Part shown: positions 7,071 to 26,093 of the stretch, one piece after another | Position numbering within the stretch: position 1 is the stretch's first letter | Layout of the letters: each line of letters begins with the position of its first letter | NCBI RefSeq assembly: GCF_003991155.1 | Contig: NZ_CP031293.1 | From: Escherichia coli | GTDB taxonomy: Bacteria > Pseudomonadota > Gammaproteobacteria > Enterobacterales > Enterobacteriaceae | Strand: one strand, 5' to 3' | DNA length: 64,000 nt | Translations under genes and position numbers: made by a program | The notes under the pieces: model-generated | What the model was told of the DNA's origin: nothing | Seen by the model: only the letters and a program-made list of their open reading frames with translations | Databases searched by the model: none

Positions 7071-8703
7071 CCTACTGATAGCGATGATAATCTTTGCGCT
7101 AATCTGGCCTGCAACCGCGCTCAGAGCGGCAGTGAGCAAAACAACCTGGGCGGATGCTCCGGCACGCGAGTTTGTGTTTGTCGAAAACAACTCAGACGAC
7201 AACTTTTTCGTCACTCCTGGCGGGGCGCTGGATCCGCGCCTGACCGGTGCCAACCGCTGGACCGGTTTAAAATACAATGGTTCAGGAACCATCTATCAGC
7301 AAAGCCTCGGCTACATTGATAACGGTTACAACACCGGCCTTTATACCAACTGGAAGTTTGATATGTGGCTGGAAAATTCACCAGTTTCATCTCCTTTAAC
7401 TGGCTTGCGCTGCATCAACTGGTACGCAGGGTGTAATATGACCACCAGTCTTATCCTGCCGCAAACCACCGACGCCAGTGGATTTTATGGCGCGACGGTG
7501 ACCAGCGGCGGCGCGAAATGGATGCACGGCATGTTGTCAGACGCGTTTTACCAGTATCTGCAACAAATGCCCGTCGGCAGCAGCTTTACAATGACCATCA
7601 ATGCCTGCCAGACCTCTGTGAACTATGACGCCAGCAGCGGCGCACGCTGTAAGGATCAGGCCTCCGGCAACTGGTATGTTCGCAACGTCACCCATACGAA
7701 AGCAGCAAATCTACGGTTGATAAATACCCACTCGCTGGCGGAAGTATTTATCAACAGCGACGGAGTACCGACTCTGGGCGAAGGGAACGCCGACTGCCGG
7801 ACGCAAACCATCGGCAGCCGTTCAGGATTAAGTTGTAAGATGGTTAACTATACCCTGCAAACAAACGGACTCAGCAACACCTCAATCCATATATTCCCTG
7901 CGATCGCCAACTCGTCGTTAGCCTCGGCCGTCGGGGCGTACGATATGCAGTTCAGTCTGAATGGCAGTTCATGGAAACCGGTGAGCAATACCGCCTATTA
8001 CTACACCTTCAACGAGATGAAGAGCGCAGACTCGATCTATGTTTTCTTCTCGAGCAATTTCTTTAAGCAGATGGTGAACCTCGGGATCAGCGATATCAAT
8101 ACCAAAGATCTGTTCAACTTTCGCTTTCAGAACACCACATCACCGGAGTCTGGCTGGTATGAATTTTCTACCTCCAACACGCTGATTATCAAACCCCGTG
8201 ATTTCAGCATCAGTATTATCTCCGATGAATATACTCAGACACCGTCGCGGGAGGGATATGTTGGCAGCGGCGAGTCGGCACTCGATTTCGGCTATATCGT
8301 AACCACCAGCGGTAAAACAGCTGCTGACGAAGTGCTGATCAAGGTGACCGGACCCGCGCAGGTGATTGGCGGGCGCTCCTATTGTGTCTTCAGCTCCGAT
8401 GACGGTAAGGCGAAAGTACCGTTCCCGGCGACGCTTTCCTTTATTACCCGCAACGGAGCTACAAAAACCTACGATGCCGGGTGCGATGATAGCTGGCGGG
8501 ATATGACCGATGCGCTGTGGCTGACTACACCGTGGACTGATATCTCTGGCGAAGTGGGGCAGATGGATAAGACCACAGTCAAATTTTCGATTCCAATGGA
8601 TAACGCCATTTCGCTGCGTACGGTAGATGATAACGGCTGGTTTGGCGAAGTCAGCGCTTCAGGAGAGATTCATGTTCAGGCGACGTGGCGTAACATTAAC
8701 TAA
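7060..8703 (+). CDS. ecpD: ECP tip/adhesin subunit
   Basis: 547 aa with a signal peptide. Overlaps the ecpC stop by 11 nt. Position in the ecp operon. Confidence 0.85.
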
Positions 8704-11282: not shown

Positions 11283-11474
11283 TGCCATTTTCGAACAGCT
11301 GATTGGTTTAGTCCGGTGTTTCCCTGCTTGCACTTAAAAATGAGCGGATGGGAAACTCTCGAAATGGTTCGTCGATATGCTCACCTTTCAGTCAGGCATT
11401 TCACCGCGCACGCGAGCAAAATCAAAGGCACAAGAGGAGAACGTAGTTTACTGAAATGTGAGGTAACTTATTGA
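11283..11474 (+). pseudogene. C-terminal fragment of a tyrosine integrase (lambda/P22-like), outside the island
   Basis: The frame reads ...LKMSGWETLEMVRRYAHLSVRHFTAHASKI...*, containing the conserved C-terminal RYAHL (catalytic Tyr) box. No upstream catalytic domains are present. It ends 4 nt before the att repeat. Confidence 0.55.
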
Positions 11475-11478
11475 TTTA

Positions 11479-11497
11479 AATGGTGCGATAATAGGAA
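11479..11497. repeat. attR: distal copy of the thrW 3' end
   Basis: AATGGTGCGATAATAGGA matches AATGGTGCCGATAATAGGA at 31059-31077, with one C missing. Confidence 0.75.
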
Positions 11498-11558
11498 CAA
11501 TACACATAGGCGATAAGCTTTGTTTTTGTTGCCTTTTTTATTGTTCATTTTTTATAGA

Positions 11559-11578
11559 TACCCCCAAAAGTACCCCCA
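11559..11578. repeat. tandem TACCCCCA arm-type repeats (attR arm)
   Basis: TACCCCCAaaagTACCCCCA sits about 60 bp inside attR. The same pair with the same 12-bp period occurs at 30928-30947 next to int. Confidence 0.6.
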
Positions 11579-11697
11579 TATCTTTTTCCGCCCCTGAAAT
11601 TTGGTTGTTATTCATACAGCATATCAGGCGGTAACGCTCTCCCTTTAACCCACTTATTGTATGATAGTGCTATCCCACAATAAGGAATCAGCCAGCC

Positions 11698-12057
11698 ATG
11701 AGAATGACCAGTCGCAAAAAAGAGATACTTAGCTACTTTGAACCGGATAACCTCGAATGGGTGACTGGTGAGATTGGTGCGCCGCCGTTCGATGTGTCGG
11801 GTGTGGCCTACCTGCTTCATGGCATGGTGTCGTTCGATAAGCGTCACCAGCTCGAATCAACCCGGCGAACACTGGAAAGCATGGTTGCTGGTGGACTGCT
11901 TGAGCGGGTGACAGTGTATGAATCGCGCCAGATACGGCGCGGCGGTGATACTAACGCAACGGTCGTGCGCTACGGTTTACCCGGTCAGTGCGCTGTTATG
12001 CGCGATACTGGCGGCGCTGACAACGCAATATCAGGTGAATACATGCGGGTCAGTTAA
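11698..12057 (+). CDS. hypothetical 119-aa protein (possible winged-helix)
   Basis: ORF preceded by an 8-bp inverted repeat, CTTATTGT-N16-ACAATAAG. Its 3' end overlaps the convergent pRiA4b-ORF3-like gene by 8 nt. No family recognised. Confidence 0.45.
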   Translation: MRMTSRKKEILSYFEPDNLEWVTGEIGAPPFDVSGVAYLLHGMVSFDKRHQLESTRRTLESMVAGGLLERVTVYESRQIRRGGDTNATVVRYGLPGQCAVMRDTGGADNAISGEYMRVS

Positions 12058-12592
12058 TAGCCTGCAATCTGTCGTTGATGCGGCTCAGGTCGTAAACCCG
12101 GCGTTCAATATCCAGCATCAGGAAATTGTGGATCTCGGCCTGCTCAGGATTATCAGACTCTCTGGCCTGTAATAGCAATTCATTGTAACCATGCAAGCCG
12201 CCTGAGTTTTCCGCCGGGGTGGTGCCTTTCCCACGCAGGCAGCTAATGGGCTGATTACTCGTATCGTGTGTTTGCTTCTCCAGCACAATGACGCAATCCC
12301 ACCAGTCGCCAAAGTCATACGTGTAAACCAGCTTGTCACCCTCATTCTGGAGCGCCGCCCATAGTGGCGTGATTGCCGCGTTACCCATGCTTTCATCCTC
12401 ACCCCATACGCGATACTCGCTACCTGGATCACCTTTACGCCCTTTCTCGAACATATACAGGTGTTCGTCATTCCAGCCAAAAGCTAACTGGATCACGGCA
12501 TGAAGTTTACTAAAGGGGATTTGCTCTGGAACCAGCACACGCCGCCATATAGGTGGTTTGCTGTCTCGGATGGTTATCTTTAGCTGGTACAT
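12050..12592 (-). CDS. plasmid pRiA4b ORF-3 family (MM3350-like) protein
   Basis: N-terminus MYQLKITIRDSKPPIWRRVLVPEQIPFSKLHAVIQLAFGWNDEHLYMF plus DFGDWW and GGLHGYNELL motifs, typical of this family as I remember it. Confidence 0.7.
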   Translation of the reverse strand: MYQLKITIRDSKPPIWRRVLVPEQIPFSKLHAVIQLAFGWNDEHLYMFEKGRKGDPGSEYRVWGEDESMGNAAITPLWAALQNEGDKLVYTYDFGDWWDCVIVLEKQTHDTSNQPISCLRGKGTTPAENSGGLHGYNELLLQARESDNPEQAEIHNFLMLDIERRVYDLSRINDRLQAIN

Positions 12593-12712
12593 GCAAATCC
12601 TGAATAAATGCGAATCGGAAGGATAACGATACTGACGTACTCACAATTCTGTAAAGGTGAATAAAGGAAATTTGCTTAATACGCATAAGTTACATGTGGA
12701 ATAATCCCATAT

Positions 12713-12898
12713 CTACCTGCGCGGCGCTGGCTTCTTCCACTGGTAGGCAGGTGCTCGCATCATTTCGCGGAACCTGTCGCGCCGGGCTATATCGGCATTA
12801 ACTGATCGTTCTATCTCCCGTTGATCTGCCTGTGTAAGCTGGTGGCCTCCGTGCTCAAGTTTGGCGATGGTCAATAAGGCTATTTCGCGTGGTGTCAT
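12713..12898 (-). CDS. hypothetical 61-aa basic protein
   Basis: ORF with GAGGG about 10 nt upstream of the ATG. No homology recognised. Confidence 0.4.
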   Translation of the reverse strand: MTPREIALLTIAKLEHGGHQLTQADQREIERSVNADIARRDRFREMMRAPAYQWKKPAPRR

Positions 12899-13127
12899 AC
12901 GTCATACCCTCTGGAAGGATGAAACACGCCCGGATTAAATTTCATTTTTCGCGGGTATAAAAAAACGATGGGGCGGGCAGTCCCGGATAGTCAGGGCTGT
13001 AGAGATTTGACTACCCCCTCCCCACTGGATTCAGGTTACTGCTATTCCGTTAAGCGCTGCTTACGGGGATAGCTGCGTTGTGATTTTGACCATTCAGGTC
13101 GCCGCTATTTCCTCACCGATTGGGTGC

Positions 13128-13147
13128 TACGCGCGCGCGTACTTGTC
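13128..13147. repeat. GC-palindrome repeat R1 (TACGCGCGCGCGTACTTGTC)
   Basis: First of four related copies (see 14520, 14754, 14807). R1 and R2 align over about 45 bp. Confidence 0.6.
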
Positions 13148-13195
13148 CCGAAATACCAGAAACCGCCAGCCAGAGGATGATTTCCCTCTGGTGGT

Positions 13196-13477
13196 CTACC
13201 TTTGCCTCTTGCCGCCATTTAACCGGAAGGCGTTACCGTTCGGTTGCGCTATCCCCATGCGGTGTTGCGTTTCGGTAACAGCTTTATGCAGGTCGCCAAA
13301 TTCCTCAACCTTCACGGGCGGGCGCTTCACGTTCTCCAGACACGTTTCACGGCGGCGCTTTATCCATTCCCGATCATCGTCCTCGGTGCATAACAGCATG
13401 ACTTCCATCCATCGTGCGGCAGCTCTCCGGTATAGCCCTTTTGACTCCAGCTCTTCAGCTTTCCTGTCCCTTATCAT
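13196..13477 (-). CDS. PerC/Pch-family transcriptional activator-like protein
   Basis: 93 aa. MIRDRKAEELESKGLYRRAAARWMEVML...RRRETCL matches the PerC-family signature (LE-KGL-RRAA-RW) as I recall it. Confidence 0.6.
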   Translation of the reverse strand: MIRDRKAEELESKGLYRRAAARWMEVMLLCTEDDDREWIKRRRETCLENVKRPPVKVEEFGDLHKAVTETQHRMGIAQPNGNAFRLNGGKRQR

Positions 13478-13506
13478 TTCTGCCTCTCAGATTATATAGA
13501 TAAGCA

Positions 13507-13634
13507 AAAAGGTGTTGGTTCAGTTGGTTCAGTTGGTTCAATTTGTAAAGATCGTTGTTTTTATTGTGTTTTTTCTGAAATGTTGAACCAACATCAACTC
13601 ATTTTGAACCAACACAGCCCAGCTCTGAACCAAC
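13507..13634. repeat. iteron-type origin-like element (ori-prime / crr-like)
   Basis: Three contiguous GTTGGTTCA (13514-13540), a 43-bp AT-rich spacer, then three inverted TGAACCAAC at 13584, 13605 and 13626 (21-bp phasing). Confidence 0.7.
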
Positions 13635-13686
13635 AACACAGCGATAGCTTTGTGATTGGTCCGTTATTTTCTGGCTGATATTTGAG

Positions 13687-13717
13687 CGTATAACAGTGTT
13701 ATACAGTGGTATACTGT
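13687..13717. promoter_or_regulatory. two adjacent palindromic operator-like sites upstream of the RHH gene
   Basis: TATAACAgTGTTATA (13687-13701) and ATACAGTggtatACTGTAT (13699-13717). They overlap a TATACT -10-like hexamer. Confidence 0.4.
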
Positions 13718-13736
13718 ATGGATATTACTCACTGAT

Positions 13737-14192
13737 ATGGTCTTTGCAATGAGCAAATCTAATCTGATCGCGTTCCGCATCCCATCTGAATTGCAGGATG
13801 AGTTTAATCGGTCTGTTCTCGCTTCTGGAGGGGATAAAACCTCCTGGCTTGTTGATGCGATTCGCATGAAGCTGGGACAGCCGGAAAAGTCTATTGATTC
13901 ACGAATGCTTGGGCTGGTGGAGCGCATGGAAAAAGCCGCTGCGTCGCTTATTGCCGGAAAGCCGAACATCCCACCAAAGCCATATAACGAAACGGCAGTT
14001 ATAAAGATCATTGCCGATACCATCCAACAGGGATTTGATAATGGGCGTGTGATAGCTGAACGGATCAATGAAGCAGGCTATCAAACAAAAGCTGGTAAAG
14101 CGTGGGATAAAGATATTTACAGCGCGTGGAAGCGTCAGGGAAGCAATGCTGAAAAGTTAAAAGCGGTGATTGATTGTAAGGTCAGCGTATAA
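13737..14192 (+). CDS. ribbon-helix-helix (Arc/Mnt/CopG-like) DNA-binding protein with an extra C-terminal domain
   Basis: N-terminus SNLIAFRIPSELQDEFNRSVLASGGDKTSWLVDAIRMKL fits the RHH strand-helix-helix pattern. The alternative start is 13749. The remaining ~100 aa are unassigned. Confidence 0.55.
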   Translation: MVFAMSKSNLIAFRIPSELQDEFNRSVLASGGDKTSWLVDAIRMKLGQPEKSIDSRMLGLVERMEKAAASLIAGKPNIPPKPYNETAVIKIIADTIQQGFDNGRVIAERINEAGYQTKAGKAWDKDIYSAWKRQGSNAEKLKAVIDCKVSV

Positions 14193-14271
14193 ACATGAGT
14201 GCCCATTGGAAAGCTGCTTGGGCCAATACCTTTATACACCAGCAGGTGGTGACGATAGGTGAGGATTAGGC

Positions 14272-14493
14272 ATGAAAGGCAGAACGCCACACATTGAACA
14301 TCAAGCCAACCACTTCTCGGATGTTCGCAATGAGATGATTGCCATTCGCGGTGATATGCACGGCTTGGAGCGTCGAATTATTGATAAGATTGATGAAAAT
14401 AGAGATAAGGCCAGTGAAAATCAAAAGTGGATCATCGGCCTGTTGATTTTATCAATTCTTATCCCGCTACTTATCGCATTGGTCACAAAATGA
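14272..14493 (+). CDS. 73-aa protein with coiled-coil N-terminus and a single C-terminal TM helix
   Basis: GAGG RBS 9 nt upstream. The C-terminus is WIIGLLILSILIPLLIALVTK. The architecture resembles XhlA/holin-like small membrane proteins (inference only). Confidence 0.5.
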   Translation: MKGRTPHIEHQANHFSDVRNEMIAIRGDMHGLERRIIDKIDENRDKASENQKWIIGLLILSILIPLLIALVTK

Positions 14494-14519
14494 ATATCCA
14501 ATGTGTATGCTGTCGATGC

Positions 14520-14537
14520 TACGCGCGCGTACTTGTC
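14520..14537. repeat. GC-palindrome repeat R2 (TACGCGCGCGTACTTGTC)
   Basis: See R1. Located 27 nt after the stop of the 73-aa gene. Confidence 0.6.
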
Positions 14538-14753
14538 GCAAAATATCAGGCAAAGGCCAGATTCAGAAATTCGTGATAACCACCAGCACAACATGAGAGG
14601 TCATGTAACGCGATTTATCACACCAGATACATGTGATTGGTGTACCCGCATAAAACATCGTCATAGCGCGTCCTGTGCGCATATACGCCGATAATCAACA
14701 CATCACCACCACTCTGTCTCATGTAGAGAACAGTTTTATGGTACTCCCCTCCA

Positions 14754-14770
14754 TCGTGCGCGTACTGGTC
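14754..14770. repeat. GC-palindrome repeat R3 (TCGTGCGCGTACTGGTC)
   Basis: Degenerate copy, same orientation as R1, R2 and R4. Confidence 0.5.
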
Positions 14771-14776
14771 GGACGT

Positions 14777-14798
14777 AGTTGCAAAATTTTTTGCAACT
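14777..14798. repeat. inverted repeat AGTTGCAA-N6-TTGCAACT between R3 and R4
   Basis: 8-bp perfect arms read directly from the sequence. Confidence 0.5.
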
Positions 14799-14806
14799 GA
14801 TACCCC

Positions 14807-14823
14807 TCGCGCGCGTACTGGTC
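14807..14823. repeat. GC-palindrome repeat R4 (TCGCGCGCGTACTGGTC)
   Basis: See R1. Confidence 0.55.
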
Positions 14824-15036
14824 ACGAAATTGGTGTTTTGCTGTGGCAGTGATATCAGAAAAATCTTCCTGTTTCACATAAAGCGGATATGCGCGTAATG
14901 TAACGGCCCCATCAACTGGGAGCGGATTTGAGCCCGAATGTGTAGGCAATGTCACTTAACGTTTGTCGCATACCTTCCAGAAAAAGCGATTCATGAATAA
15001 TAGGGGCATGAATGCCCGGCGTACCGGGCTTATTAG

Positions 15037-15735
15037 TTAATTTGGTGCTTTAGGGTCAACATTAAAAGTTATATCACCTTCTGTATTTTTCCCGGCATAG
15101 CTAGCGGCTATTCTCGCCAACCCTTTGTAATCAGCAATTCCATCAGACTGTTGCGAGACGACTGAGCTACCAACTTTCCATAACATATTAATCTGCCGAT
15201 TATTGAGATAAGCCTTGGCATCAAACGACTGGAGTATCACCCCTGCGCCGTAGAACGTGTCCGTCACAGTTGTGTTATACGCGCCAGTAATTCCATAAGT
15301 AGGCGTATAAACTGTTGTTGCCGTTCCAGTGGTATTAGCTGTACCGTAGCCACCACCATAACTATTGAACGTGGTGTTCGAGTTTCCGTACGTTGTTGCT
15401 GAGCTCACACCAGTTTGCCCGTATATTGGGATGGTTACATTACGAGTATTTGAAATGGCCCCGCTTCTCAAAAAGTTCAAGAGAATTACCTGGTCAGCCA
15501 ATTTTTCATCTTTAACTTGTGTATATCCTTGGCTTGATAAACTGGCGGCTACTACCGTAGCTATTTGAGTGTATTCAATCTGTTTGGTGTTCCAAAGTTC
15601 TTGGCTTGCGGGGATGATCAAGAACTTCTTACCGACAGATTGCCCGGAAGATAAAGCATTGACCGTTACTAACGGTTTTTGTACGCATCCAGCCAATAAT
15701 GACAGGGATAATATTAAAAGAAGATTTTTAATCAT
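15037..15735 (-). CDS. lipoprotein (moron-like)
   Basis: 232 aa. Signal peptide with lipobox MIKNLLLILSLSLLAGC. The central region is Thr/Gly/Tyr/Asn-rich. AGGTGAG RBS. It has its own 150-bp upstream spacer after the 908-aa gene. Confidence 0.75.
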   Translation of the reverse strand: MIKNLLLILSLSLLAGCVQKPLVTVNALSSGQSVGKKFLIIPASQELWNTKQIEYTQIATVVAASLSSQGYTQVKDEKLADQVILLNFLRSGAISNTRNVTIPIYGQTGVSSATTYGNSNTTFNSYGGGYGTANTTGTATTVYTPTYGITGAYNTTVTDTFYGAGVILQSFDAKAYLNNRQINMLWKVGSSVVSQQSDGIADYKGLARIAASYAGKNTEGDITFNVDPKAPN

Positions 15736-15885
15736 GATAATCTCACCTAAGAATTGCGTGGTTATAAATTATCATCACTGTAAGCGAATGTAAGCCACAG
15801 GCTCGTAATGTGATATGGAATTTTGATAGTTGGCTCAATATCAGTATGCCGTCCTTGGCTATTATGGTTTTGTTAGTTAGAGCGT

Positions 15886-18612
15886 CTATTCCCATTCGCT
15901 AACATCTTTCATGCCACTGAGGGTAGCTACAATCCCGGCCCTTGTCAGTTTCACGAATTCTTCAGCCCCAACGGCATCACGAATTGCTTTCATGGCAATT
16001 TTATTGGCCGAAAATCGTTTCTCTGCTGCGGCGATCGCTGCTGGTGATGCCCCTGCGCGCACTGCTTTTGTAGCTTCCTGAACGGCTTTCTCTATCGCAT
16101 ATCGACCACTTCTTGTCGCCCCAATCTTAGCCACAGCATTTCTTAGCGCGCCACCAGCAACCAAACCACTAATCGAACCAATTACACCACCGCCAAAGCC
16201 TCCAGCGATCGCACCTGACTGTTGAACTCCGTTCATAATCACGCCGACGATCTTTGGAAGGCCTGAATCGAGCGTTTTGAGAGCCTCAGTTGTTCTTCCC
16301 GTGCGCTCTACGTATCGCTGCGGTCTGGTACTGGCTTTAGCGAGTACACCGAACTCTTTCATCATTCTACCGAGATCTGGCGCATGACGACTGATGGCGT
16401 TTACATTCTGCTGGGTCATGAGCTTGGCAAAATACTGGATACCTGACTCTTCACCGATTCCTCCCTTCTCTCCCTGCGCCACAGCATGCTGAAGAATAGA
16501 TGCTATTGCAGGTTGGCGTTCTGCTTCCGGCAGCGCGGAGATAAGACGGTGAAAAGCTCCCGTTCCAGTGTTTGCGGATGCCTTAAGCGTATCGGCACCT
16601 TTTCTTACCATAGCGTCTGATGCGAGATCTCGACCAAAAACAGATTCGGCATTTTGTTTGGCGATAATGTAACTTTTAGAGAGATCGTTAGCTTTCTGCC
16701 ATTCTGTGAGGAAGTTTCCTTTTTCAGCCATGATGCGCATGTCATCAGTGATAGCTCTGCGCATTTCTCCGGCAATCCGGGCGGCATTGGCCTTACCTGC
16801 CCGGGTGTTTGCTTGTTCAGCATCAGCAAACTTAGCACGCCATGCCTTCATCCCGTCGAAGGTTATGCCGCCACCTTGGTTGTTGGCAGCCTGAAACTGT
16901 TTCATCTCCGGGCTGAGTGGAACATTGGCTGCTTTTTCTGCTTGGACGACAGCCATCCCATTACTCATTTTCATCCTTTCGCGTGGCATCGTGCTTCGCA
17001 GTTCTGCCCATGCCATATTCTCTGCTGTTTTCATATCACTGAGGCTCGCGATGATGCGCTCTTTAATTGCTGCGCTTTTTTCTGATGCGCTTCCAGACTC
17101 AGCACCGAAATCAGACAACTGCTTATTCAACTTTGAGGATATTTCATTGAAGGCCGTAAGGTGAGCATCCTGAACATTCCCAGGAGTTGATGCCAGAACA
17201 CCTTCTGCTTGGGCAATTCCACGACTACCTGAGCGCATTCCAGGCGTCAGGGTGTTGATATTAATACCAGTGATTTTCGCCGCCTTAGCGACATCATCTC
17301 TGACGTTTGATGCCTGCGATGCGATATGCTCTCGGCCTACGGCAGAACGCGCTGCTTTCGATACATCATTGGCGGTTTCCAGAGTATTTGCTGCCCCTAA
17401 CACATGGCCTGATTGATTTGTATTACTCCGCAATACATCTCGCATTACGTCACTGGCTGTCTGTCCGCTCTTTATTAAAGCGCGTGCTCCTAGCGATCCT
17501 GCTAGGCCAATACCTGTCTCTTTTGCTAGGTCTTCTGGGCTGATCTGCCCGTTCTTTTGGGCGTTCACCAATGTACCTGGCAGGTTTTCTGCCAACATAC
17601 TAGCCACCTTTGTGGCCGCACGTTCAGCACGTGGAGCGTTGGCAACTGAAGAAGCTGCGGTAGCTGCCTTTCCTGCACCTAATCCTGTAATAAGGTAAGG
17701 TGCTAGCTGCTCACCAGCCTGCGCGTATGGATCTGTAGGTTGGTCTACTGGGCGAAAGACAGGTGATATGGGCGTGTATGTGCCATCACCCACACCAAGC
17801 TTCTGAGCTGCCCATGCTCCGGCTGATTGCGCCGCATTGACTACCCCCACGCCTGCGTCCATTACATCAAACGGTATATTAGCAATCCCTCTGGCCATCT
17901 GCTCTGGCGCAGCTTTCAGTCCTGGCGAAAGATATTCCATCTCAGGATTAAGGTTAGACTTGGCTACTTGCTGCTGCGGTTCCCCGGCATTTTCATCGGC
18001 GAGAAACTGAGCTCTTTTCTGCTCCCATGAACTGGCTGTTGGTAGTCCTGCTTCTATGTTCTTAAATTGCTGACGTTTTGCTTCCCATGCAGAAATATCT
18101 CCCACCTGAGAGATTTCTTTATCAAGCTCTGAGTAGTCAGGCTGCTGAAGATTGCGATGTTGACTGGTTTGTGCAAACTGCAAGATTTCACTGTCATCAG
18201 GGATTATTCCGGCATCTGCAAATTTACTTACGTAATTAGCCGTTTCATCTGGCAGTGTAGATTTACCGTTTCTGACGGCATTAATACGAGCATAGCCAGA
18301 ATTATACCCAGCCAATGCCATACCTATATCACCAAATCGCTTCATTCCTTTATTGAGATGGTTTGCTGCGATATCCATTTGCTTTTCAAATGGCAGTGAG
18401 CGCGGATCTGTTCCACGATAACCAGCATCACTCATTACTGAGGGCATCAGTTGAGCAAATCCTCTAGCTCCTTTCGGTGACTCGGCACTTCCGTTACCAC
18501 TAGATTCATTGCCAACTAATGTTTCCATCGTCCCTGATGGGAAACCATATTTTTCATCGAGATGACGGGAATAGGCTTTCTGTTTTTCTGTCAGTTGTGC
18601 CATCATTGCCAT
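15886..18612 (-). CDS. 908-aa protein with N-terminal soluble lytic transglycosylase domain (ejection / internal virion protein-like)
   Basis: SLT motifs near the N-terminus: NESSGN...GARGFAQLMPSV...ALAGYNSGYARI. The remainder is Ala-rich and helical with a Gly-rich hydrophobic segment near the C-terminus. The start overlaps the upstream ORF by 10 nt. Confidence 0.75.
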   Translation of the reverse strand: MAMMAQLTEKQKAYSRHLDEKYGFPSGTMETLVGNESSGNGSAESPKGARGFAQLMPSVMSDAGYRGTDPRSLPFEKQMDIAANHLNKGMKRFGDIGMALAGYNSGYARINAVRNGKSTLPDETANYVSKFADAGIIPDDSEILQFAQTSQHRNLQQPDYSELDKEISQVGDISAWEAKRQQFKNIEAGLPTASSWEQKRAQFLADENAGEPQQQVAKSNLNPEMEYLSPGLKAAPEQMARGIANIPFDVMDAGVGVVNAAQSAGAWAAQKLGVGDGTYTPISPVFRPVDQPTDPYAQAGEQLAPYLITGLGAGKAATAASSVANAPRAERAATKVASMLAENLPGTLVNAQKNGQISPEDLAKETGIGLAGSLGARALIKSGQTASDVMRDVLRSNTNQSGHVLGAANTLETANDVSKAARSAVGREHIASQASNVRDDVAKAAKITGININTLTPGMRSGSRGIAQAEGVLASTPGNVQDAHLTAFNEISSKLNKQLSDFGAESGSASEKSAAIKERIIASLSDMKTAENMAWAELRSTMPRERMKMSNGMAVVQAEKAANVPLSPEMKQFQAANNQGGGITFDGMKAWRAKFADAEQANTRAGKANAARIAGEMRRAITDDMRIMAEKGNFLTEWQKANDLSKSYIIAKQNAESVFGRDLASDAMVRKGADTLKASANTGTGAFHRLISALPEAERQPAIASILQHAVAQGEKGGIGEESGIQYFAKLMTQQNVNAISRHAPDLGRMMKEFGVLAKASTRPQRYVERTGRTTEALKTLDSGLPKIVGVIMNGVQQSGAIAGGFGGGVIGSISGLVAGGALRNAVAKIGATRSGRYAIEKAVQEATKAVRAGASPAAIAAAEKRFSANKIAMKAIRDAVGAEEFVKLTRAGIVATLSGMKDVSEWE

Positions 18613-19922
18613 CCCTTAAGTTTTGCCTGATAGTAACTTTCCGGCAGATAGCCATGTGCGGTCACATAATCCTTAACCAGTGAAGGATCCTGCAACAGCA
18701 TTTTGGTATCAGTTTCTTCGTCCTTAGATTTGGTTACAGGAATACCGAGCCCGGCAATCTGTCGTTTCTGCATTCGAATAATTACGTCCTGCGCTTTATT
18801 CAACTCTCGCAAAAATGCCTCATTGCTGGTTGCTGACTTAATGCCATTTTGAGATTGCATAAGGGCAGCCCTTTCCCCTTCGGTTGGGTTAGAGCCAAAA
18901 GTCCCTTTGAGGCTAGGCAGAATAACCTTTAGGTTGTATTCATCAGCTTTGGCGCGTAGGCTTCGTGTGTCTTCTGCTACATCAGGAAGGAATCCAAACC
19001 CCAGCGTCAGGGGGTTATAGTTCTGCGAGCGGGTAACGGCCGAAGGATGTTTCCCTACAATTCCCGCCAGTTCATGACCCACTTCAAGCGCAGAGTTCAA
19101 GGAGTCGATGTTACCTACAACAGTATTAATTTTATCGTTCATCTTCTCCACTTTCGCCTGCTGTACCTTGCTCAGTTCAGCATTGAGCTTGTCTCTCTCG
19201 ATGTCATTTTGAGCACGTCCAAGTCGTGCTTTCAGAACCATTTCTCTCGTGCGTAGTTGGTTATCGGATAGGACTTTGAACTGCTCCATATCGAGACGTC
19301 GATTACCCTGTTCCGCATTAACCTGAGCATTATATGCGGATGTATCTGCGTTCTGCTGTGCAATGCTCTGCCCTTGCTGCTTCTCTTGAACACTAAAGTA
19401 ACTATTTGGATCAGCATGGAGGTGGATGAGGTCAGTGATTCTGTTGAATTCCTGTGGGTCATTCTGCCAAGACTGATAAACCTCTTCAGCAGGAAGACCA
19501 AATCGCTGTAATACTGGATTTGCCTGCTGAATGGCCTTCTGCATGGTCAGTGGATCTCCAGTTTGTGACGCAAGACGCAGATTCATGGCAGCGTCAGCGG
19601 TCTGTCGATTTTGCTCAGCATCAATGAATCCCATCTGTTTTTGAGAATCAGCCATAAACTGGGGATACTGGGCCATTAACTTCTGCACGCCAACACGATC
19701 ATTATTAGCTACCGCACTACCCAACCGTGCCTGATATTCTTTTAACTGCTGGGAAATTTGCGCCTGCTGATTAATCTCAGCAACGCCTCTTAGCCCCTGT
19801 AGCGCCATTAAACCTACGTTTGGCTGCTGCTGATACTGCACAGGCTGAGGAACGGAAGAACGAGGAGCATTATCATTTTGCGGTGCCATGCTAGGCAGCC
19901 CGCCAAGTTGCCATGTCGCCAT
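18603..19922 (-). CDS. 439-aa Gln-rich coiled-coil protein (ejection protein-like, P22 gp20-sized)
   Basis: Long uninterrupted ORF. Its start overlaps the upstream stop by 1 nt. Composition and position inside the cassette are the only evidence. Confidence 0.6.
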   Translation of the reverse strand: MATWQLGGLPSMAPQNDNAPRSSVPQPVQYQQQPNVGLMALQGLRGVAEINQQAQISQQLKEYQARLGSAVANNDRVGVQKLMAQYPQFMADSQKQMGFIDAEQNRQTADAAMNLRLASQTGDPLTMQKAIQQANPVLQRFGLPAEEVYQSWQNDPQEFNRITDLIHLHADPNSYFSVQEKQQGQSIAQQNADTSAYNAQVNAEQGNRRLDMEQFKVLSDNQLRTREMVLKARLGRAQNDIERDKLNAELSKVQQAKVEKMNDKINTVVGNIDSLNSALEVGHELAGIVGKHPSAVTRSQNYNPLTLGFGFLPDVAEDTRSLRAKADEYNLKVILPSLKGTFGSNPTEGERAALMQSQNGIKSATSNEAFLRELNKAQDVIIRMQKRQIAGLGIPVTKSKDEETDTKMLLQDPSLVKDYVTAHGYLPESYYQAKLKGWQ

Positions 19923-20599
19923 TAGAATCCAAGCCCCCCAACAAGACCAATAAGCCCACCACCAATAGCGCCGGCCGCAGTTCCTATTCCAGGAACAACG
20001 GAACCAAGTTGCGCACCCGCTAAAGCGCCTGATGCTGCCCCACCAATACCACGCGCAAGACTGGATGGCTGCTGCGCCTGACCTGCACGAATAGCGCCAA
20101 GCCCCTGCAAGAGTTGTCCGGTATTATTGGCGTAGTTTTGCCCTGCCGTTGCCTGCCCTGATGCCGCATTCATCCCGACATTTAGCAGGTTTCCATAATT
20201 TTGCATTTGCCCACTAAGCCAATTGTTATAAAGCATGGGCGCAATGGAAGATAACTGGTTACTGGTAGCTGTTGAGCCAAGCCCCCCGGTAGCTTCTGCT
20301 GAGACAAGGTTCTGATAACGGGCCTGATCTGCCTGTGTTTTATATAAACCAGAACCAAAGAAATCATTCGCGGCTTTATTCTGCCCTTCCAGAGTCATCA
20401 GTCCTTGCAGTTGTTGTAAAGCAGGCAATCCGACTTCTGCATACGGCTTGAGATTATTCATCACCGTATTCCACTGCTCGCGCTGCAAATCAATTGCCTG
20501 CTGCTGGGCCTTCGCCTGAGCTTTAGAGGCACCACCATCACCGCCTTTTTCGTATACGGCACGATTGAGATGTTTATGAGCTATATGGGTAATTAACAT
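19922..20599 (-). CDS. 225-aa Gly/Ala/Gln-rich protein with hydrophobic Gly-zipper C-terminus (ejection protein-like, P22 gp7-sized)
   Basis: ATGTTAA start/stop overlap with the upstream ORF. C-terminus is GSVVPGIGTAAGAIGGGLIGLVGGLGF. Confidence 0.55.
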   Translation of the reverse strand: MLITHIAHKHLNRAVYEKGGDGGASKAQAKAQQQAIDLQREQWNTVMNNLKPYAEVGLPALQQLQGLMTLEGQNKAANDFFGSGLYKTQADQARYQNLVSAEATGGLGSTATSNQLSSIAPMLYNNWLSGQMQNYGNLLNVGMNAASGQATAGQNYANNTGQLLQGLGAIRAGQAQQPSSLARGIGGAASGALAGAQLGSVVPGIGTAAGAIGGGLIGLVGGLGF

Positions 20600-21054
20600 T
20601 CGCTGAATTCCTTATATTGTTGCCGAGTTAACTGATAAAGCGTTACGCCGACGGGTTTACCACATCTGATATAAGCATCATCAAGGTGACCAACACGGGT
20701 AGCGCCAAGCAAACGGATAATTGCCCGTCCATATTTTGTGGTGTCAGGAACCATAGTGATGCTGTTAAGGAATGGTGAGTTTTCGAGAAGCCATTTGCAG
20801 AATAATCGATGCCCTTGCAGTGCATATTCACCACGGAATCCGGGGTCGTACACCGCATGGCATTCAACAACGCTATGCCAGAAGTTACGCACTTCATGAA
20901 CGCCAGCCAGCACTAATCCTTCGTAGATGCCGAGATATACCGCATCAGGCTTGATGTAGTACGTGTGCCCCGGCTCAACAATATTTTCGGTATTGCCTGG
21001 CTCGTTAAGAAAGGCCTGTAATCGCACAGGGTTATCAATAAATTTTAGTTCCAT
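20593..21054 (-). CDS. 153-aa protein, possible acetyltransferase-like fold (P22 gp14-sized)
   Basis: ORF contains DPGFRGEYALQGHRLFCKWLL, which resembles GNAT motif A. First large gene of the cassette. Assignment is tentative. Confidence 0.5.
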   Translation of the reverse strand: MELKFIDNPVRLQAFLNEPGNTENIVEPGHTYYIKPDAVYLGIYEGLVLAGVHEVRNFWHSVVECHAVYDPGFRGEYALQGHRLFCKWLLENSPFLNSITMVPDTTKYGRAIIRLLGATRVGHLDDAYIRCGKPVGVTLYQLTRQQYKEFSEC

Positions 21055-21070
21055 GCGATGCCATCCATTT

Positions 21071-21232
21071 TCACATACAGCCTGCCAGCGCCTTATCTAT
21101 TAACCCTCGTGCAATTTCATGCAGAGTTGGCGCTACTCCAATTCCTGATTTTTTACGCTGCTCTTCCTGAATTTTCTTTATCGCTTCCATTTGCTTCTCA
21201 CTTATCAATACCGGCTTTACTGAAATAGCCAT
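21071..21232 (-). CDS. 53-aa possible ribbon-helix-helix protein
   Basis: AAGGGGGG RBS before ATG 21232 (MAISVKPVLISEKQMEAIKKI...). The longer 96-aa ORF-track version would include an intrinsic terminator, so the internal start is preferred. Confidence 0.45.
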   Translation of the reverse strand: MAISVKPVLISEKQMEAIKKIQEEQRKKSGIGVAPTLHEIARGLIDKALAGCM

Positions 21233-21328
21233 AACGCCCCCCTTAGAACTGTATAAAACAACAGTTATTATAGTTTCACAAATCGCAATATTCATCATCG
21301 TAATTGCAAAATATGAAACAAATAGCAC

Positions 21329-21361
21329 AAAAAAATGCCACCGCTCAGTAGCTGGTGGCAT
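21329..21361 (-). terminator. rho-independent terminator ending the primase operon
   Basis: On the minus strand: ATGCCACC-N11-GGTGGCAT followed by TTTTTTT. Confidence 0.7.
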
Positions 21362-21681
21362 CGTTCTGTGTGTCAGGTTTTGACAGGTTTTTTATGGACT
21401 CTAAAAACTATATTTATGGTATCGCATTACTCTTCACGGCAGGTGCTTTTCAGTTCTGCCCTTGCTTCTGGCTCCATTGGTAATTTGATTCGCGATCAGC
21501 TATGCGGATGGTTTGCTGAACAGGCATAACAACTTCTCAGAGGCTGTTTTTTGAACTACGAAAATTTCGTAGTGCTCACTTTCAAAAACGTCACGCCCTT
21601 GTACACAGGATTTTACGAAAGTCTCGTAAAACACTCTCTGATGCCAGCCAGGTGTTGTGCGCATCAATTCAGTCACATTGT

Positions 21682-21799
21682 GTCGGTTCAAAATACCGTG
21701 TTGTTGGTTCAGTGTTGGTTCAATAAAAAGAATAAAATCCTTATAAAACAATACACTTTACAAATTGAACCAACTGAACCAACTGAACCAACACCTTTT
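21682..21799. repeat. iteron-type replication origin adjacent to the primase gene
   Basis: GTCGGTTCA and two GTTGGTTCA (21682, 21703, 21714), a 43-bp AT-rich spacer, then three contiguous TGAACCAAC (21766-21792). 21756-21799 is the exact reverse complement of 13507-13550. Confidence 0.75.
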
Positions 21800-21817
21800 C
21801 TACGCACATGAAGAAGC

Positions 21818-24577
21818 TCATTCTTCAGATGAGTTATAATCTCCTGGCTGGTAATTGAGTACATAAACGTTTATTTGTCGTCCCTGAATACGTGGTGATT
21901 TTCTTTGGTATCCACGACCGCTGTTTGGTGGGGTTAGCATCCCGGCTTTTTTCAACACTTCAGCAAACTGTTTTGCGTTGAAACCACATGCGATCTCCTT
22001 TTCAAATGTGGCCGGGAATGTGTAGAAAATCATTGGGCTTTCGTCATGTTCTCCACGCTGACGGTATCCGGCTAAATCTTTGATGGGCAAATCTGCCGGG
22101 CTGTATGGAAATGGTGCAAAACGGCTAAGCCCATAGGCATTAAGAAATGCCTCCGTTTGTTCAATAATCTGCTGATGCTCTTTGTTACCTGTGCCGAACT
22201 CGCGCAACCATGCGTTATAGCTGTGCTGTATCGCATCACGGCATGTCTGAGCATCCCAGCCTGTTACAACCTCGCCTAACAACAATGCGGCCTCCAGAAT
22301 GGCAAATCGCGCGGCTACACGGTGAACCTGCTCACCATAATCGGATGGGATCAGGCTTCTCCATCTGCTTTCGCAATCACGAACGGTTTTAATAGCCTGT
22401 TGCTGGTGGTGTGCCAGCCATTTAATCCACTCACGCCCGGACGCGCCGTGGTGATGCTGGTAAGCGTCTTTCAGTGCGTCTGCGTGCTGTTTTCCGTTCT
22501 GGTAATCGTGAAAGCGTACTGCTTTACTCAACGGAATATTCAGCAGTCGCACCAGTTGCCCGGCTTTGGTTTTTCGCCCGGAAGTAGCGATAAATGTTTC
22601 TAAATCCATTTCTCCGGTGCTGATTGCCACTGTACGCCAGCGTTTTAGATCCCGGTTTCCACCATCTTTAGCGCCTTGCAGTTTCCCTACACCGTTAAAT
22701 AACGCATAGGCAGACTGTGAAACGCTGACAGGATCAGCGCCCTGACCAACTTCATCAAGCGGCATTAGTCCGTCATTGTGGGCGGCGGCCTCATTTGCCA
22801 GCCCCAGCGCGGTTCCGTACCACGTCAGCCGCAGTAAATCAGGGTTGCCGTATAAGCTGCTCGCCACGTTTGCCGTGGTGGTCTTACCTGCGCTCGACTG
22901 CTCATAGAAATGAATGCCGAACCCGTCAGCGCCCACCAGCCCAATCAATGGCGCTGCCAGTGCTGCGCCGATCCCGGTCATCATTGAATAGTTACCAAAG
23001 GCCAGACGCGCCACGTTATCACGCCAGCTTTTCGCGCTCCCTGAGACGGTATATCCGGCTGCGGCTGAGCTTCTCCCGCTGAACAGCACAGGATTTTCAG
23101 GTGTTCCGATGATTTCCCCATCAGGCATGATGTACGCTCCGCATTGCCAGCCAGTGGCATGAGCAACACGCCACAATTCACGAGAGCCACTGCGTTGTAG
23201 CCAGTCTGCCAGTATTGCTCTGAGGCTGCTTTTGGTCGTGACATTTACCCCACCAGCTTTAAGTGTGCGCCATCCTTCACGTTCACCAATATCAGCCAGT
23301 GGAATGGCAGCGGTTGTCGGCGTTTCAGAACCAAACGACAGCCAGCGAAGAATGAGATACTGGTCTTTATCGTCTCTGCCAGTACCGATAACGCTTAACG
23401 GAGAACATAACCAGCTTTCGTTATTGATGATTTCTCCACTCTGGCTGTCAGCTCTCGGAGATACCCAATAAATACCATCCTCGCGGCTTTCTATTCTTGG
23501 TTTCAGTGGGTCGGTATCCATAACCTTAAAATCGCTTCCCTCAATGGTCTGTGGCTCCTGTTTCACGCCATTACCCTGTGGTTGGTACATTGACTTATTG
23601 AACGCTTCTGTGGCGCATTTAATGCCGTGTTTTTGGTGGTAATCATTCCAGTCTGCTTTGTGATCTGTCGGGGGTAATGCCACCCATCCAGAAACAGATA
23701 AAGCTGCTTTTTCTGCTGCTATTCTCCCCGTGTTTTGTCTTCCTTCGCTGTGGTCGTTATCCGCAGCAATGATGATTTGTGCTGAAGGAAATTTATCCCG
23801 CAGTACCTGGGCGACATATAACAGGTTCCCGGCATCAATCGCCGCCACTGTCAGCGCCTCTGGACGAATTAAATGGGCAGATAATGCCGTTGCCAGACCT
23901 TCTGCGATTAAGATGCTCTGTGTTGTTTCTGGTGCGTTTATGGCGTGATATGCCCCCCGCTTTGCTGAACCTGTCAGGAGTCTTTTTTCACCATGTGAGG
24001 TAATAGTCTGTGCTGCTGTGACTGCGCCGGATTTATCCACCAGCGCCAGCAACAGAGATCCATCGGGCAACACGGGGAATGTAAAATCACCTACCCCTTT
24101 CGCAACCAGATAATCAGATTTGCCGTTTACAGCCTTTCTGCGCATGTCATCAAACTGACGGGAAAACGTATCCCGTCTTTGTTGTTCGTCCTTCTCTGCC
24201 CTTTTCAGGCGCTCCTGTTCGCGTCGCTGGCGCTCGGTTTCCAGTTGTTCCCGTTTCTGGCTGGTGGCTTCTGGTGTTTCCGTTGTCCGGTAATCAATAC
24301 CCAGAACATCAGCGGCAAGAAGCGCCGCCTCTGTTGTGTCGCAGTTATTTACGCGTTTAATTAAATCCAGCCCATCACCAGCGCCGCACTGATTACAGAT
24401 GAAGCTACCGCGCCCGTTGTCATCGAACCGGAATCGATCTTTGCCCCCACATGCAGGGCAGGGAGCATGACGGCGCGGAGAGTCAGGGACATTTATGTTC
24501 AGGCAGCCCAGCACATGAGGCCAGTTGTTTTCAGACGCACTGATAACCTGACGGATAAGATCAATGTTTCGCATCAC
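21818..24577 (-). CDS. primase-helicase (Zn-ribbon + TOPRIM + DUF927/P-loop), functional analogue of P4 alpha
   Basis: Zn ribbon CPACGGKDRFRFDD...FICNQCG; TOPRIM-like ILIAEGLATALS...IIIAADND; Walker A YEQSSAGKTT. GTG 24577 or ATG 24574 start overlapping the upstream stop. Confidence 0.85.
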   Translation of the reverse strand: MMRNIDLIRQVISASENNWPHVLGCLNINVPDSPRRHAPCPACGGKDRFRFDDNGRGSFICNQCGAGDGLDLIKRVNNCDTTEAALLAADVLGIDYRTTETPEATSQKREQLETERQRREQERLKRAEKDEQQRRDTFSRQFDDMRRKAVNGKSDYLVAKGVGDFTFPVLPDGSLLLALVDKSGAVTAAQTITSHGEKRLLTGSAKRGAYHAINAPETTQSILIAEGLATALSAHLIRPEALTVAAIDAGNLLYVAQVLRDKFPSAQIIIAADNDHSEGRQNTGRIAAEKAALSVSGWVALPPTDHKADWNDYHQKHGIKCATEAFNKSMYQPQGNGVKQEPQTIEGSDFKVMDTDPLKPRIESREDGIYWVSPRADSQSGEIINNESWLCSPLSVIGTGRDDKDQYLILRWLSFGSETPTTAAIPLADIGEREGWRTLKAGGVNVTTKSSLRAILADWLQRSGSRELWRVAHATGWQCGAYIMPDGEIIGTPENPVLFSGRSSAAAGYTVSGSAKSWRDNVARLAFGNYSMMTGIGAALAAPLIGLVGADGFGIHFYEQSSAGKTTTANVASSLYGNPDLLRLTWYGTALGLANEAAAHNDGLMPLDEVGQGADPVSVSQSAYALFNGVGKLQGAKDGGNRDLKRWRTVAISTGEMDLETFIATSGRKTKAGQLVRLLNIPLSKAVRFHDYQNGKQHADALKDAYQHHHGASGREWIKWLAHHQQQAIKTVRDCESRWRSLIPSDYGEQVHRVAARFAILEAALLLGEVVTGWDAQTCRDAIQHSYNAWLREFGTGNKEHQQIIEQTEAFLNAYGLSRFAPFPYSPADLPIKDLAGYRQRGEHDESPMIFYTFPATFEKEIACGFNAKQFAEVLKKAGMLTPPNSGRGYQRKSPRIQGRQINVYVLNYQPGDYNSSEE

Positions 24578-24932
24578 CGTACCCCACGTGGTCTATAGCG
24601 TTTGCGATATGGCTAACCAGCATCTGCCACTTGGTTATTCCGTAATCAGTCAGCATGCCATCATTGTTTAGCCACATATCAAATTCAGCGGTTGTCGCAA
24701 GTTTCCACTTATCGCCGTGGACAGTCCTCATTGCTGGGTACATGAATGCGCAAATCAGATCACAAACATCTGACGGCTTCAGAGATGTAGTAATGGTGCG
24801 TCCCTCTGGCGTCTGAATTGCCATTTTCTCTTCACCAGTAGAATGAAGGTTATGAATCCACACAGCACCAGCAATCTTTGCCACCTGCTCTCCGATTGCG
24901 GAGCTAAGCGCCATTTCTGCATTTTCACGCAT
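24561..24932 (-). CDS. hypothetical 123-aa protein (paralog family B)
   Basis: GGAGG RBS. 8-nt overlap with the upstream stop. Shares ...YP...DG-LTD-G--WQ-(M/L)V with the 113-aa ORF. Confidence 0.55.
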   Translation of the reverse strand: MRENAEMALSSAIGEQVAKIAGAVWIHNLHSTGEEKMAIQTPEGRTITTSLKPSDVCDLICAFMYPAMRTVHGDKWKLATTAEFDMWLNNDGMLTDYGITKWQMLVSHIANAIDHVGYGDAKH

Positions 24933-25266
24933 GAGAACCTCCCGCTACAGTTGCGCCCATGTCATTAACCATGCTTTGCCATATCTCACGCCCGACGTCA
25001 GTCAATCCGTCCTTAGTGACGCAACGTTCAAGAAGCTCGATCCCCACGGTTTCCCACTGCGGGTAGAACACTTTCATGGCTGCCAGTGTGTAGCTATCGA
25101 TCAGGCTGCGAACGCCTTTTACTCCATTGACGATTTCCACACGGACGGCCTCGCCGTCCGCATCAACCATGAAATAGTCCCCGCCGCTGGTGGAGGTAAT
25201 GTGGTTATACAGTGCCGACGCATACTTATTTGCCAGCGCATTCAGTCGGAAATTTTTAGTAATCAT
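24925..25266 (-). CDS. hypothetical 113-aa protein (paralog family B)
   Basis: GGAG RBS 5 nt upstream. C-terminal motif is FYPQW...KDGLTDVGREIWQSMV. Confidence 0.55.
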   Translation of the reverse strand: MITKNFRLNALANKYASALYNHITSTSGGDYFMVDADGEAVRVEIVNGVKGVRSLIDSYTLAAMKVFYPQWETVGIELLERCVTKDGLTDVGREIWQSMVNDMGATVAGGSHA

Positions 25267-25276
25267 GGCTCCATCC

Positions 25277-25879: not shown

Positions 25880-26093
25880 GTTTCGCCTCGCCTGAATGAT
25901 TCTGTAACTCATATTTGCCCAACAATTCGTCCGCTTCCTGAATAGCTTCTGGTACGCCATTGAGCAGTGACATAACCGCGCCAATCATTAACTTGTCTCT
26001 GTTGCTGGGGCTGGCCCCTTCAAGCCAGAACCCTAAAACAGTCTGAACCTGTTCGATGCGACATTGCGCTTCAATGAGCTGGATGTTGGTCAT
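25872..26093 (-). CDS. hypothetical 73-aa helical protein (paralog family A)
   Basis: Its start overlaps the upstream ORF's stop by 4 nt. Predicted two-helix pattern. Confidence 0.45.
   Translation of the reverse strand: MTNIQLIEAQCRIEQVQTVLGFWLEGASPSNRDKLMIGAVMSLLNGVPEAIQEADELLGKYELQNHSGEAKHE

Follow-up and report, generated by a model that had tools for sequence, protein, structure and literature searches.

An EcCIMP1-type phage-inducible chromosomal island of Escherichia coli: backbone and cargo genes at its integrase-distal end

The stretch of DNA analysed here, referred to as the window, comprises 64,000 nt of Escherichia coli contig NZ_CP031293.1 (RefSeq assembly GCF_003991155.1). It contains a phage-inducible chromosomal island (PICI) of the EcCIMP1 type, and three small open reading frames (ORFs) at the integrase-distal end of this island, designated p119, p180 and p61 after the length of their products, are the subject of this study. 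A first-pass annotation of the window had regarded them as a compact two- or three-gene accessory module, possibly anti-phage, at the attR-proximal end of a satellite. From co-occurrence, indel and p61 distribution data it follows that the three ORFs are two backbone genes, p119 and p61, flanking a one-gene cargo, p180.

Three genes at the island end

The following features are found at this end of the island (aa, amino acids).

11653-11684, plus strand, imperfect palindrome of 32 bp, CTTATTGTATGATAG-TG-CTATCCCACAATAAG, upstream of p119, putative p119 operator
11698-12057, plus strand, p119, ORF of 119 aa
12050-12592, minus strand, p180, ORF of 180 aa, PF07929 single-domain protein, optional cargo
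12051-12712, minus strand, cargo cassette detected as an indel of 662 bp, consisting of p180 and a 120-bp 5' spacer; 27 bp are found instead in Shimwellia (locus L009)
12626-12655, minus strand, putative sigma-70-like promoter match upstream of p180, TTTACA-18-TATCGT, from a consensus scan
12713-12898, minus strand, p61, ORF of 61 aa, small basic protein, backbone-like

Coordinates and strands of the three ORFs were exactly as first annotated, and the convergent overlap of p119 and p180 was confirmed. The final codons and stops of the two genes share 8 nt, TCAGTTAA, at 12050-12057, with the TGA of p180 (minus strand) at 12050-12052 and the TAA of p119 (plus strand) at 12055-12057. The basic nature of p61 is reflected in an isoelectric point (pI) of 10.8.

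Comparisons with homologs from other genera gave ratios of nonsynonymous to synonymous substitution rates (dN/dS) of 0.06-0.18 for p119 and 0.07-0.12 for p180, with dS values of up to ~2.0, and of 0.10-0.36 for p61. All three ORFs are real genes under purifying selection. On this evidence, and with 542 homolog clusters across Enterobacterales, p119 is conserved as a coding sequence, as the first-pass proposal had presupposed, and both p119 and p180 are conserved in full length across genera. Small ORFs without assigned function at the end of an island, beside an integrase fragment (11316-11474), might also be regarded as non-functional relics or annotation artefacts, and this was considered for p180 and/or p119. 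The dN/dS values over such a range of dS, the full-length conservation across genera and a confident fold model of p180 (predicted local distance difference test, pLDDT, 90) speak against this explanation, to which a negligible probability is assigned; it is already refuted by the selection analysis.

Distribution of the genes and content of the slot

Homologs of p119 with their flanking regions were taken from three sources, one genome per species, metagenome contigs, and IMG/VR contigs, and loci with enough downstream sequence (n=149) were regarded as informative. At the same convergent position with the 8-nt overlap, p180 is present in 74 of these loci and absent from 75, a ratio which is not a population frequency, since the metagenome part of the sample was restricted to the 80 loci of highest similarity. 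Among loci whose p119 is at least 88% identical to that of the window, 73 of 84 contain p180, leaving eleven close alleles without it. Below 88% identity, p180 was found in just one of 65 loci, L013, and is missing from the other 64. In complete E. coli genomes, p180 was detected in 374 of 5426 and p119-like DNA in 535 of 5426; of these 535 alleles, 152 are divergent (60-80% nucleotide identity), and p180 is absent from all four such loci examined. Furthermore, p119 is located at the integrase-distal end of PICIs with other integrases, attachment (att) sites, primases, and even capsid modules. p119 is a PICI backbone gene. Conversely, a 76%-identical p180 is found in Serratia (L025) without p119, next to a Phd-Doc pair, and no p119-like gene adjoins the more distant members of PF07929. 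An apparent p180 of 61% identity in L026 was set aside; the neighbouring genes are called in several fragments and poor assembly is suspected.

The extent of the cassette is apparent from locus L009, which lacks p180. Homology between the window and this locus stops at 12050 and resumes at 12713, and the indel is therefore limited to p180 and its 5' spacer. The spacer is conserved where p61 directly follows, including both hexamers of the promoter match in this standard version, and is replaced where a Panacea pair or other DNA has been inserted. In total, at least three 5' flanks of p180 were observed on the p61 side, and one invariant 3' junction on the p119 side. p180 is an optional, self-contained single-gene cargo cassette. 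The invariant p119 junction together with the variable p61 side is in accordance with one ancient gain of p180, after which the genes remained linked and p180 was now and then lost cleanly, and a functional tie between p119 and p180 within that clade is possible. In two loci, L012 and L019, the 10 nt after p119 (TAAGAGCCTG) are those of the p180 3' junction of other loci; p180 is absent and an integrase gene comes next. This arrangement suggests a deletion scar, p180 having been lost there.

The first-pass annotation had also proposed antisense coupling of the p119 and p180 transcripts. No intrinsic terminator was detected between the two genes by a consensus scan, and the transcripts must therefore overlap unless they are otherwise terminated. 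The geometry of the 8-nt overlap is identical in all 74 loci containing both genes, including L013, where the proteins are 71% and 74% identical. p119 is likewise convergent to whatever cargo occupies the slot. The overlap came with the cassette as part of a junction that does not vary, and therefore does not constitute independent evidence of regulation; antisense coupling is possible, without specific support.

These data bear directly on the proposal of a single anti-phage module made up of p119 and p180, and possibly p61, based on antisense regulation or with p119 as regulator or antidote of p180. It could be argued that the invariant overlap in 74 of 74 loci, the 73 of 84 close p119 alleles carrying p180, the missing terminator, and a p180-p119 junction more stable than the p180-p61 junction are just what such a module would show. 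However, in the 75 loci that lack p180, as well as in other PICI lineages, p119 is conserved together with its palindrome and evolves under purifying selection, eleven close alleles have lost p180 cleanly, and both the Serratia p180 and the distant PF07929 genes do without p119. Moreover, convergence is unusual for toxin-antitoxin or regulator-effector pairs, and linkage explains why the genes occur together within one clade. A type II toxin-antitoxin pair in particular was rejected: the genes are convergent, and of the two only p119 is present in 75 of 149 loci and only p180 in L025. Since p61 is also found with or without p180 and the 662-bp indel is clean, the compact module was abandoned, and a joint function of the genes is considered improbable.

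For p61, matches to phrog_7271 (E 2e-6) and phrog_1561 (E 0.012) were obtained. The same two families are matched by a 93-aa protein encoded at the right end of EcCICFT073 (CFT073), which yielded an E-value of 3e-4 with p61 in BLASTP. Judging from these matches, p61 and the 93-aa phrog_1561 protein are related, p61 being the shorter of the two. The right end of EcCICFT073 has no p119 homolog, just this p61 relative. Homologs of p61 recur in many PICIs with or without p180, and p61 can be described as a backbone-like small basic protein.

Two further proteins were noted in the neighbourhood of p61. A Cys-rich ORF of 189-203 aa (MRDRTRSYTTDLPRIGL..., with CxxC motifs) is conserved between p61 and the PerC gene in other genera (L004 at 7271-7882, L005, L007-L009, L021, and L022) and absent from the window; it matched nothing in Pfam or PADLOC. 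These PICIs appear to have a further variable position in the p61-PerC interval. A protein of 125-148 aa with the motif GGKRxGAGAPxGNxNAVKHG is encoded near p119 or p61 in seven loci, including L010 (6516-6893), L016 (7207-7653), L006 (8730-9107), and L074 (6280-6678). Pfam and PADLOC were likewise without a match for it, and a function related to packaging is possible.

The slot between p119 and the next backbone gene showed a diverse content. It is empty in L009 and holds p180 alone in others. p180 is accompanied by a Panacea-domain toxin-antitoxin pair in L006 and four other loci, with two Panacea clusters represented, and by an IS256-family transposase in L013 (IS, insertion sequence). Known defence genes are SoFic in L021 (PADLOC E 1.6e-46), and ShosT (E 4e-49) and ShosA (E 2e-100) in L022. 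L011 contains genes for an ImmA/CapP-like (CapP/RmrA-like) peptidase and a membrane protein. Elsewhere, a PemK-like toxin, DUF2280, a CHAD protein, and integrases or IS elements, among them IS256 and IS3 transposases, were detected, and in other PICI lineages terminase and capsid (packaging) genes occupy the same position. Only about 5-6 of 66 non-redundant neighbour proteins matched PADLOC models, which means that the slot contains mixed cargo and is not purely defensive. It is a real variable cargo/defence hotspot, and the first-pass suggestion of an accessory slot that sometimes holds defence genes is supported by ShosTA, SoFic, Panacea, PemK-like, and ImmA/CapP-like genes in relatives.

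Defence/cargo hotspots were reportedly described in P4-like satellites by Rousset et al. in 2022, and PICI accessory regions are said to have been recognised as such hotspots by Fillol-Salom et al. in the same year. The slot resembles them in being set at a constant place between conserved backbone genes, close to one end of the element, and in contents swapped among relatives, which here include ShosTA, SoFic, and toxin-antitoxin pairs. It differs in its flanking markers, p119 and p61/PerC here versus psu and int, and p180, the occupant in the window, matches no known system.

The p119 palindrome and the possible role of p180

The 8-bp inverted repeat reported earlier upstream of p119, CTTATTGT-N16-ACAATAAG, is present and constitutes the outer part of the larger palindrome at 11653-11684, which consists of 15 + 15 nt and a 2-nt centre. 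Its left arm contains the -10-like hexamer TATGAT, where both conserved mismatches fall, and its right arm runs into the Shine-Dalgarno sequence AAGGA, 11 nt before the ATG of p119. The pattern TTATTGT-N(10-22)-ACAATAA occurs once in the window versus 0.01 expected occurrences, and no second copy of the palindrome was detected in the window. Among 29 distinct p119 upstream sequences, the palindrome is near-invariant and located at a fixed distance from the start codon. It is kept also in loci with a p119 of 51-53% identity and unrelated DNA further upstream, and homology to p119 loci of other genera starts exactly at 11653. At 12 arm positions, 95% of the cells are paired across 23 distinct sequences, and a few symmetric double changes were found, for example GATAG/CTATC to GACAG/CTGTC. 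The inverted repeat belongs to p119 and not to the p119/p180 pair.

As RNA, the palindrome is predicted to fold with -10.6 kcal/mol (z -1.1), which is unremarkable, and no Rfam family was detected in 11300-13700. A stable RNA hairpin is therefore considered less likely, and a DNA operator is favoured because of the weak fold. A LexA box does not fit either, the spacing being wrong by inspection against the consensus. The structure model of p119 has a winged-helix topology of low confidence, which places the most conserved segment, LESTRRTLE, in the helix preceding the beta-hairpin; no sequence relatives were found in the PDB with single-sequence or profile searches, a result that would extend to the PICI packaging factor RppA if its structure is among those searched. 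On the basis of this model, p119 may be a small winged-helix-like, putative DNA-binding protein. It would bind as a dimer to its own 32-bp palindrome, over the -10-like hexamer and the ribosome-binding site, and thereby regulate its own expression.

p119 is the sole gene reading into the island from the att site. In the excised circle, no other gene runs against the long int-to-cargo direction of transcription, and p119 and int diverge from each other across attP. A putative role in controlling read-through or integration is conceivable. p119 is nearly absent from phage genomes, and its few plasmid hits include circles of 17-23 kb. The one examined, L044 (NZ_CP033626.1), a 22.9-kb 'plasmid' of K. 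pneumoniae, is an excised PICI with p119 divergent from int across the attP junction. Judging from this single example, certain small 'non-mobilizable plasmids' from Klebsiella and Raoultella appear to be PICIs of this family in excised, circular form.

Winged-helix regulators of the BrxR/CapW type adjoin defence islands. p119 shares with them its small size, a predicted winged-helix-like fold, a palindrome in its own putative promoter, and a location beside variable defence cargo. However, p119 has no WYL or other sensor domain, is convergent to the cargo and not located upstream of it, and shows no sequence similarity (no Pfam or PADLOC match); its DNA binding is only putative.

The classification of p180 as a pRiA4b ORF-3/MM3350-like protein proved to be right. 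It matches Pfam PF07929 (PRiA4_ORF3) with an E-value of 1.1e-42 and 146.2 bits (cut-off 26.6), residues 2-170 being aligned to profile positions 3-167 of 173, that is, as a full-length single domain. It also matches the solved family member MM3350 (PDB 2i1s, E 3e-21) and shares its fold, and the AlphaFold2 model has a beta-grasp-like core. Neither an enzyme fold nor a recognisable catalytic relative was recovered. Residues W15, R16, R17, H30, H43, C117, G130, G131, and Y135 are invariant in PF07929, and a YxYDFGDxW block is near-invariant; these residues suggest a conserved binding surface or pocket. D92, D95, and E127 are also counted among the invariant residues. p180 is mildly acidic (pI 5.1), and no DNA-binding motif was identified.

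The family is without assigned function, in agreement with the first-pass annotation. No known function or defence model fitted p180: none of the three proteins matched a PADLOC-DB 2.0 model at E <= 1, and no NCBIfam or PHROG function was found for any of them. The search of viral structures in BFVD revealed no significant relatives of the p180 fold, and neither a functional study of PF07929 or MM3350 nor a paper mentioning the three RefSeq protein accessions was found in the literature. The p180 clade of enterobacterial PICIs is ~40% identical to its nearest stand-alone PF07929 relatives and ~23% identical to the common PF07929 passenger of ISKpn19.

Outside PICIs, PF07929 genes are overwhelmingly passengers of mobile elements. 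tblastn searches with p180 yielded matches in 2794 PLSDB plasmid records, mostly of conjugative plasmids. Most of these matches are distant and, where sampled, of the ISKpn19 kind; the sampled plasmids, which cover many sizes and genera, repeatedly contain copies with identical tblastn score and identity. The ISKpn19 passenger is a distant PF07929 gene found with a serine recombinase and an ISKra4-like transposase beside qnrS1 (L043, NZ_MT859330.1, 5040-7722). Other PF07929 genes are passengers of ISAzba1-group transposons (PMC3942029), or are contained in an IS66 copy within Pseudomonas phage Marin, in an IS1096-like unit annotated TnpA/'TnpR' in a mycobacteriophage, and on Agrobacterium and rhizobial plasmids. 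Stand-alone chromosomal copies are located near antitoxins, IS elements, or a restriction-modification-like gene, and some copies lie beside housekeeping genes.

This distribution is an argument for regarding p180 as a general mobile-element accessory unrelated to phage defence, for instance a DNA- or protein-binding helper in recombination, transposition or establishment, which would hitch-hike in the PICI and was possibly delivered by an IS. Besides the ISKpn19, ISAzba1, IS66, and IS1096-like associations and the plasmid records, the IS256-family transposase adjoining p180 in L013 would be in accordance with it. In the window, however, neither a transposase nor a terminal repeat is located beside p180, and the indel relative to L009 comprises p180 and its spacer alone. 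p180 is dispensable for the PICI backbone, with 75 loci lacking it, the neighbours at the same position are conflict genes, and a mildly acidic protein without an identified DNA-binding motif is not what such a helper would suggest. We regard an accessory role of this kind as a rather doubtful, yet serious, possibility.

The explanation preferred here is that the region represents the integrase-distal end of an EcCIMP1-type PICI, in which the backbone genes p119, which would be autoregulated, and p61 flank one swappable cargo gene, and in which p180 would be a stand-alone conflict gene. As a whole, it is given a slightly better than even chance. p180 would act alone, probably as a non-enzymatic binding protein that benefits its mobile carrier. 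Because of the slot position, conflict between phage, satellite, and host (interference, superinfection immunity, or counter-defence) is judged the most likely arena for p180, an assignment that is tentative at best and, taken by itself, unlikely to be correct. Several observations weigh against this explanation. No link of p180 to phage defence was found by homology, and an anti-phage function would amount to guilt by location in a slot of mixed cargo; the almost even split between loci with and without p180 does not represent a population frequency. The superinfection immunity conferred by EcCIMP1 has other candidates, for example homologs of the P22 injectosome. The distribution of PF07929 outside PICIs, housekeeping neighbours included, is no less compatible with a general mobile-element function than with defence. 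Finally, the p119 palindrome may act as a hairpin in the 5'-UTR or be bound by a different protein. What is left of the earlier anti-phage candidate is a real, variable, defence-bearing slot with an uncharacterised occupant; the module is not supported, and none of the three proteins matched PADLOC.

The analysis mainly re-identifies a known type of element. New, but modest, are the dissection into backbone and cargo, the p119-palindrome marker, and the presence in a defence-type slot of a PF07929 gene whose family is chiefly an IS passenger elsewhere. In many enterobacterial PICIs, the combination of p119 and palindrome is a marker for the integrase-distal end and for the slot beside it, and may serve as a handle to mine satellites for new defence genes. 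If p180 affects phage infection or defence, it would provide the first function for PF07929, a family found on PICIs, IS elements, and thousands of resistance plasmids, and it would account for the unassigned superinfection immunity of EcCIMP1 to its helper phage Kapi1. The bolder propositions, that p119 and its palindrome are an undescribed, widely conserved regulatory switch at the integrase-distal end of enterobacterial PICIs or that p180 is a new single-gene determinant of phage-satellite conflict, are held unlikely, an estimate made for both jointly.

The surrounding island

The other features of the island and its borders are listed below.

11316-11474, plus strand, C-terminal fragment of an integrase gene just outside the att core
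11487-31077, whole element, EcCIMP1-like PICI of 19.6 kb at tRNA-Thr(cgt), between yagU and proA
11487-11496, direct repeat, att core copy TCCTATTATC at the integrase-distal end (attR by prophage convention)
11508-11534, plus strand, terminator-like hairpin and T-run between att core and p119, from a consensus scan only
13196-13477, minus strand, PerC/ANR-like regulator, next backbone gene, WP_000617443.1 (PF06069, E 3.7e-30)
15886-21054, minus strand, homologs of P22 injectosome/ejection proteins (908-aa SLT-domain protein, 439-aa Inj_translocase, DUF2824)
21818-24577, minus strand, Toprim/DUF927 primase with Zn-ribbon
29050-29253, minus strand, AlpA regulator downstream of int (PF05930, E 7e-20)
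29681-30895, minus strand, tyrosine integrase (integrase domains) beside tRNA-Thr, at the end opposite p119
31068-31077, direct repeat, second att core copy TCCTATTATC, inside tRNA-Thr(cgt)

The element is a PICI of the EcCIMP1 type and thus of a known kind. A tyrosine integrase is located at one end, with a specific att site and flanking direct repeats; AlpA is encoded downstream of int, together with a primase/replication module; and the size of 19.6 kb lies within the range of PICIs (~10-20 kb). Of phage structural genes, just the P22 injectosome homologs are present; no capsid, tail, or lysis genes are contained in the RefSeq annotation of a near-identical locus, L001 (99.8% identity over 11400-13100). 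With an att core at both ends and the integrase beside tRNA-Thr at the opposite end, the location of the three ORFs at an attR-proximal satellite end was correctly recognised in the first place. The hairpin at 11508-11534 could possibly insulate p119 from chromosomal read-through. The integrase fragment at 11316-11474 is a remnant of the neighbouring island, represented in strain MP1 by a Vat/MarR island of 7 kb.

As shown by Pick, Stadel & Raivio (2025, ISME J), EcCIMP1 of E. coli MP1 excises and circularises, and it is transduced only with the P22-like helper phage Kapi1 (PMC11773190). In lysogens, it adds superinfection immunity against this helper, although the authors' searches with PADLOC and DefenseFinder revealed no known defence system (PMC11773190). 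Mobilisation by a helper phage has thus been shown experimentally for the MP1 relative of the island in the window. Both are integrated at the same site, tRNA-Thr between proA and yagU, with the same att core, and have the gene order int, AlpA, antirepressor, Ash, primase, P22-type ejection homologs, PerC, p61, p180, and p119 in common. p180 and p61 are 100% and p119 is 99% identical between the two; none of the three is discussed in the EcCIMP1 paper or its supplements (PMC11773190). The elements differ in that the window lacks the adjacent Vat/MarR island of MP1 except for the integrase fragment, and between PerC and the ejection genes a 52-aa helix-turn-helix protein is annotated in MP1, as opposed to ORFs of 151 and 73 aa in the window.

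The P22 injectosome homologs are an unusual satellite cargo. They were flagged as possible packaging genes by the EcCIMP1 authors (PMC11773190), and are alternative candidates for the helper-specific superinfection immunity of EcCIMP1 or for packaging adaptation. The PerC-like protein of the window is the same RefSeq protein as at the MP1 locus, where it matches gene EcCIMP1_025, and repression of LEE, the locus of enterocyte effacement, by EcCIMP1_025 has been reported (PMC11773190). Another LEE regulator, RgdR (ECs_1581), has been stated to occur in all E. coli PICIs. p119, p180, and p61 were rejected as RgdR candidates, as they show no similarity to ECs_1581 in BLASTP and RgdR is a different gene upstream of the primase. 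Its sole relative in the window is located at ~27610-27741 on the minus strand, with 39% identity over 44 residues, at a position matching that of a DUF4222-annotated gene in L001. In Sakai Sp7, ECs_1581 is found just upstream of the primase gene, and RgdR therefore appears to belong to the block of small genes between antirepressor and primase and not to the PICI end.

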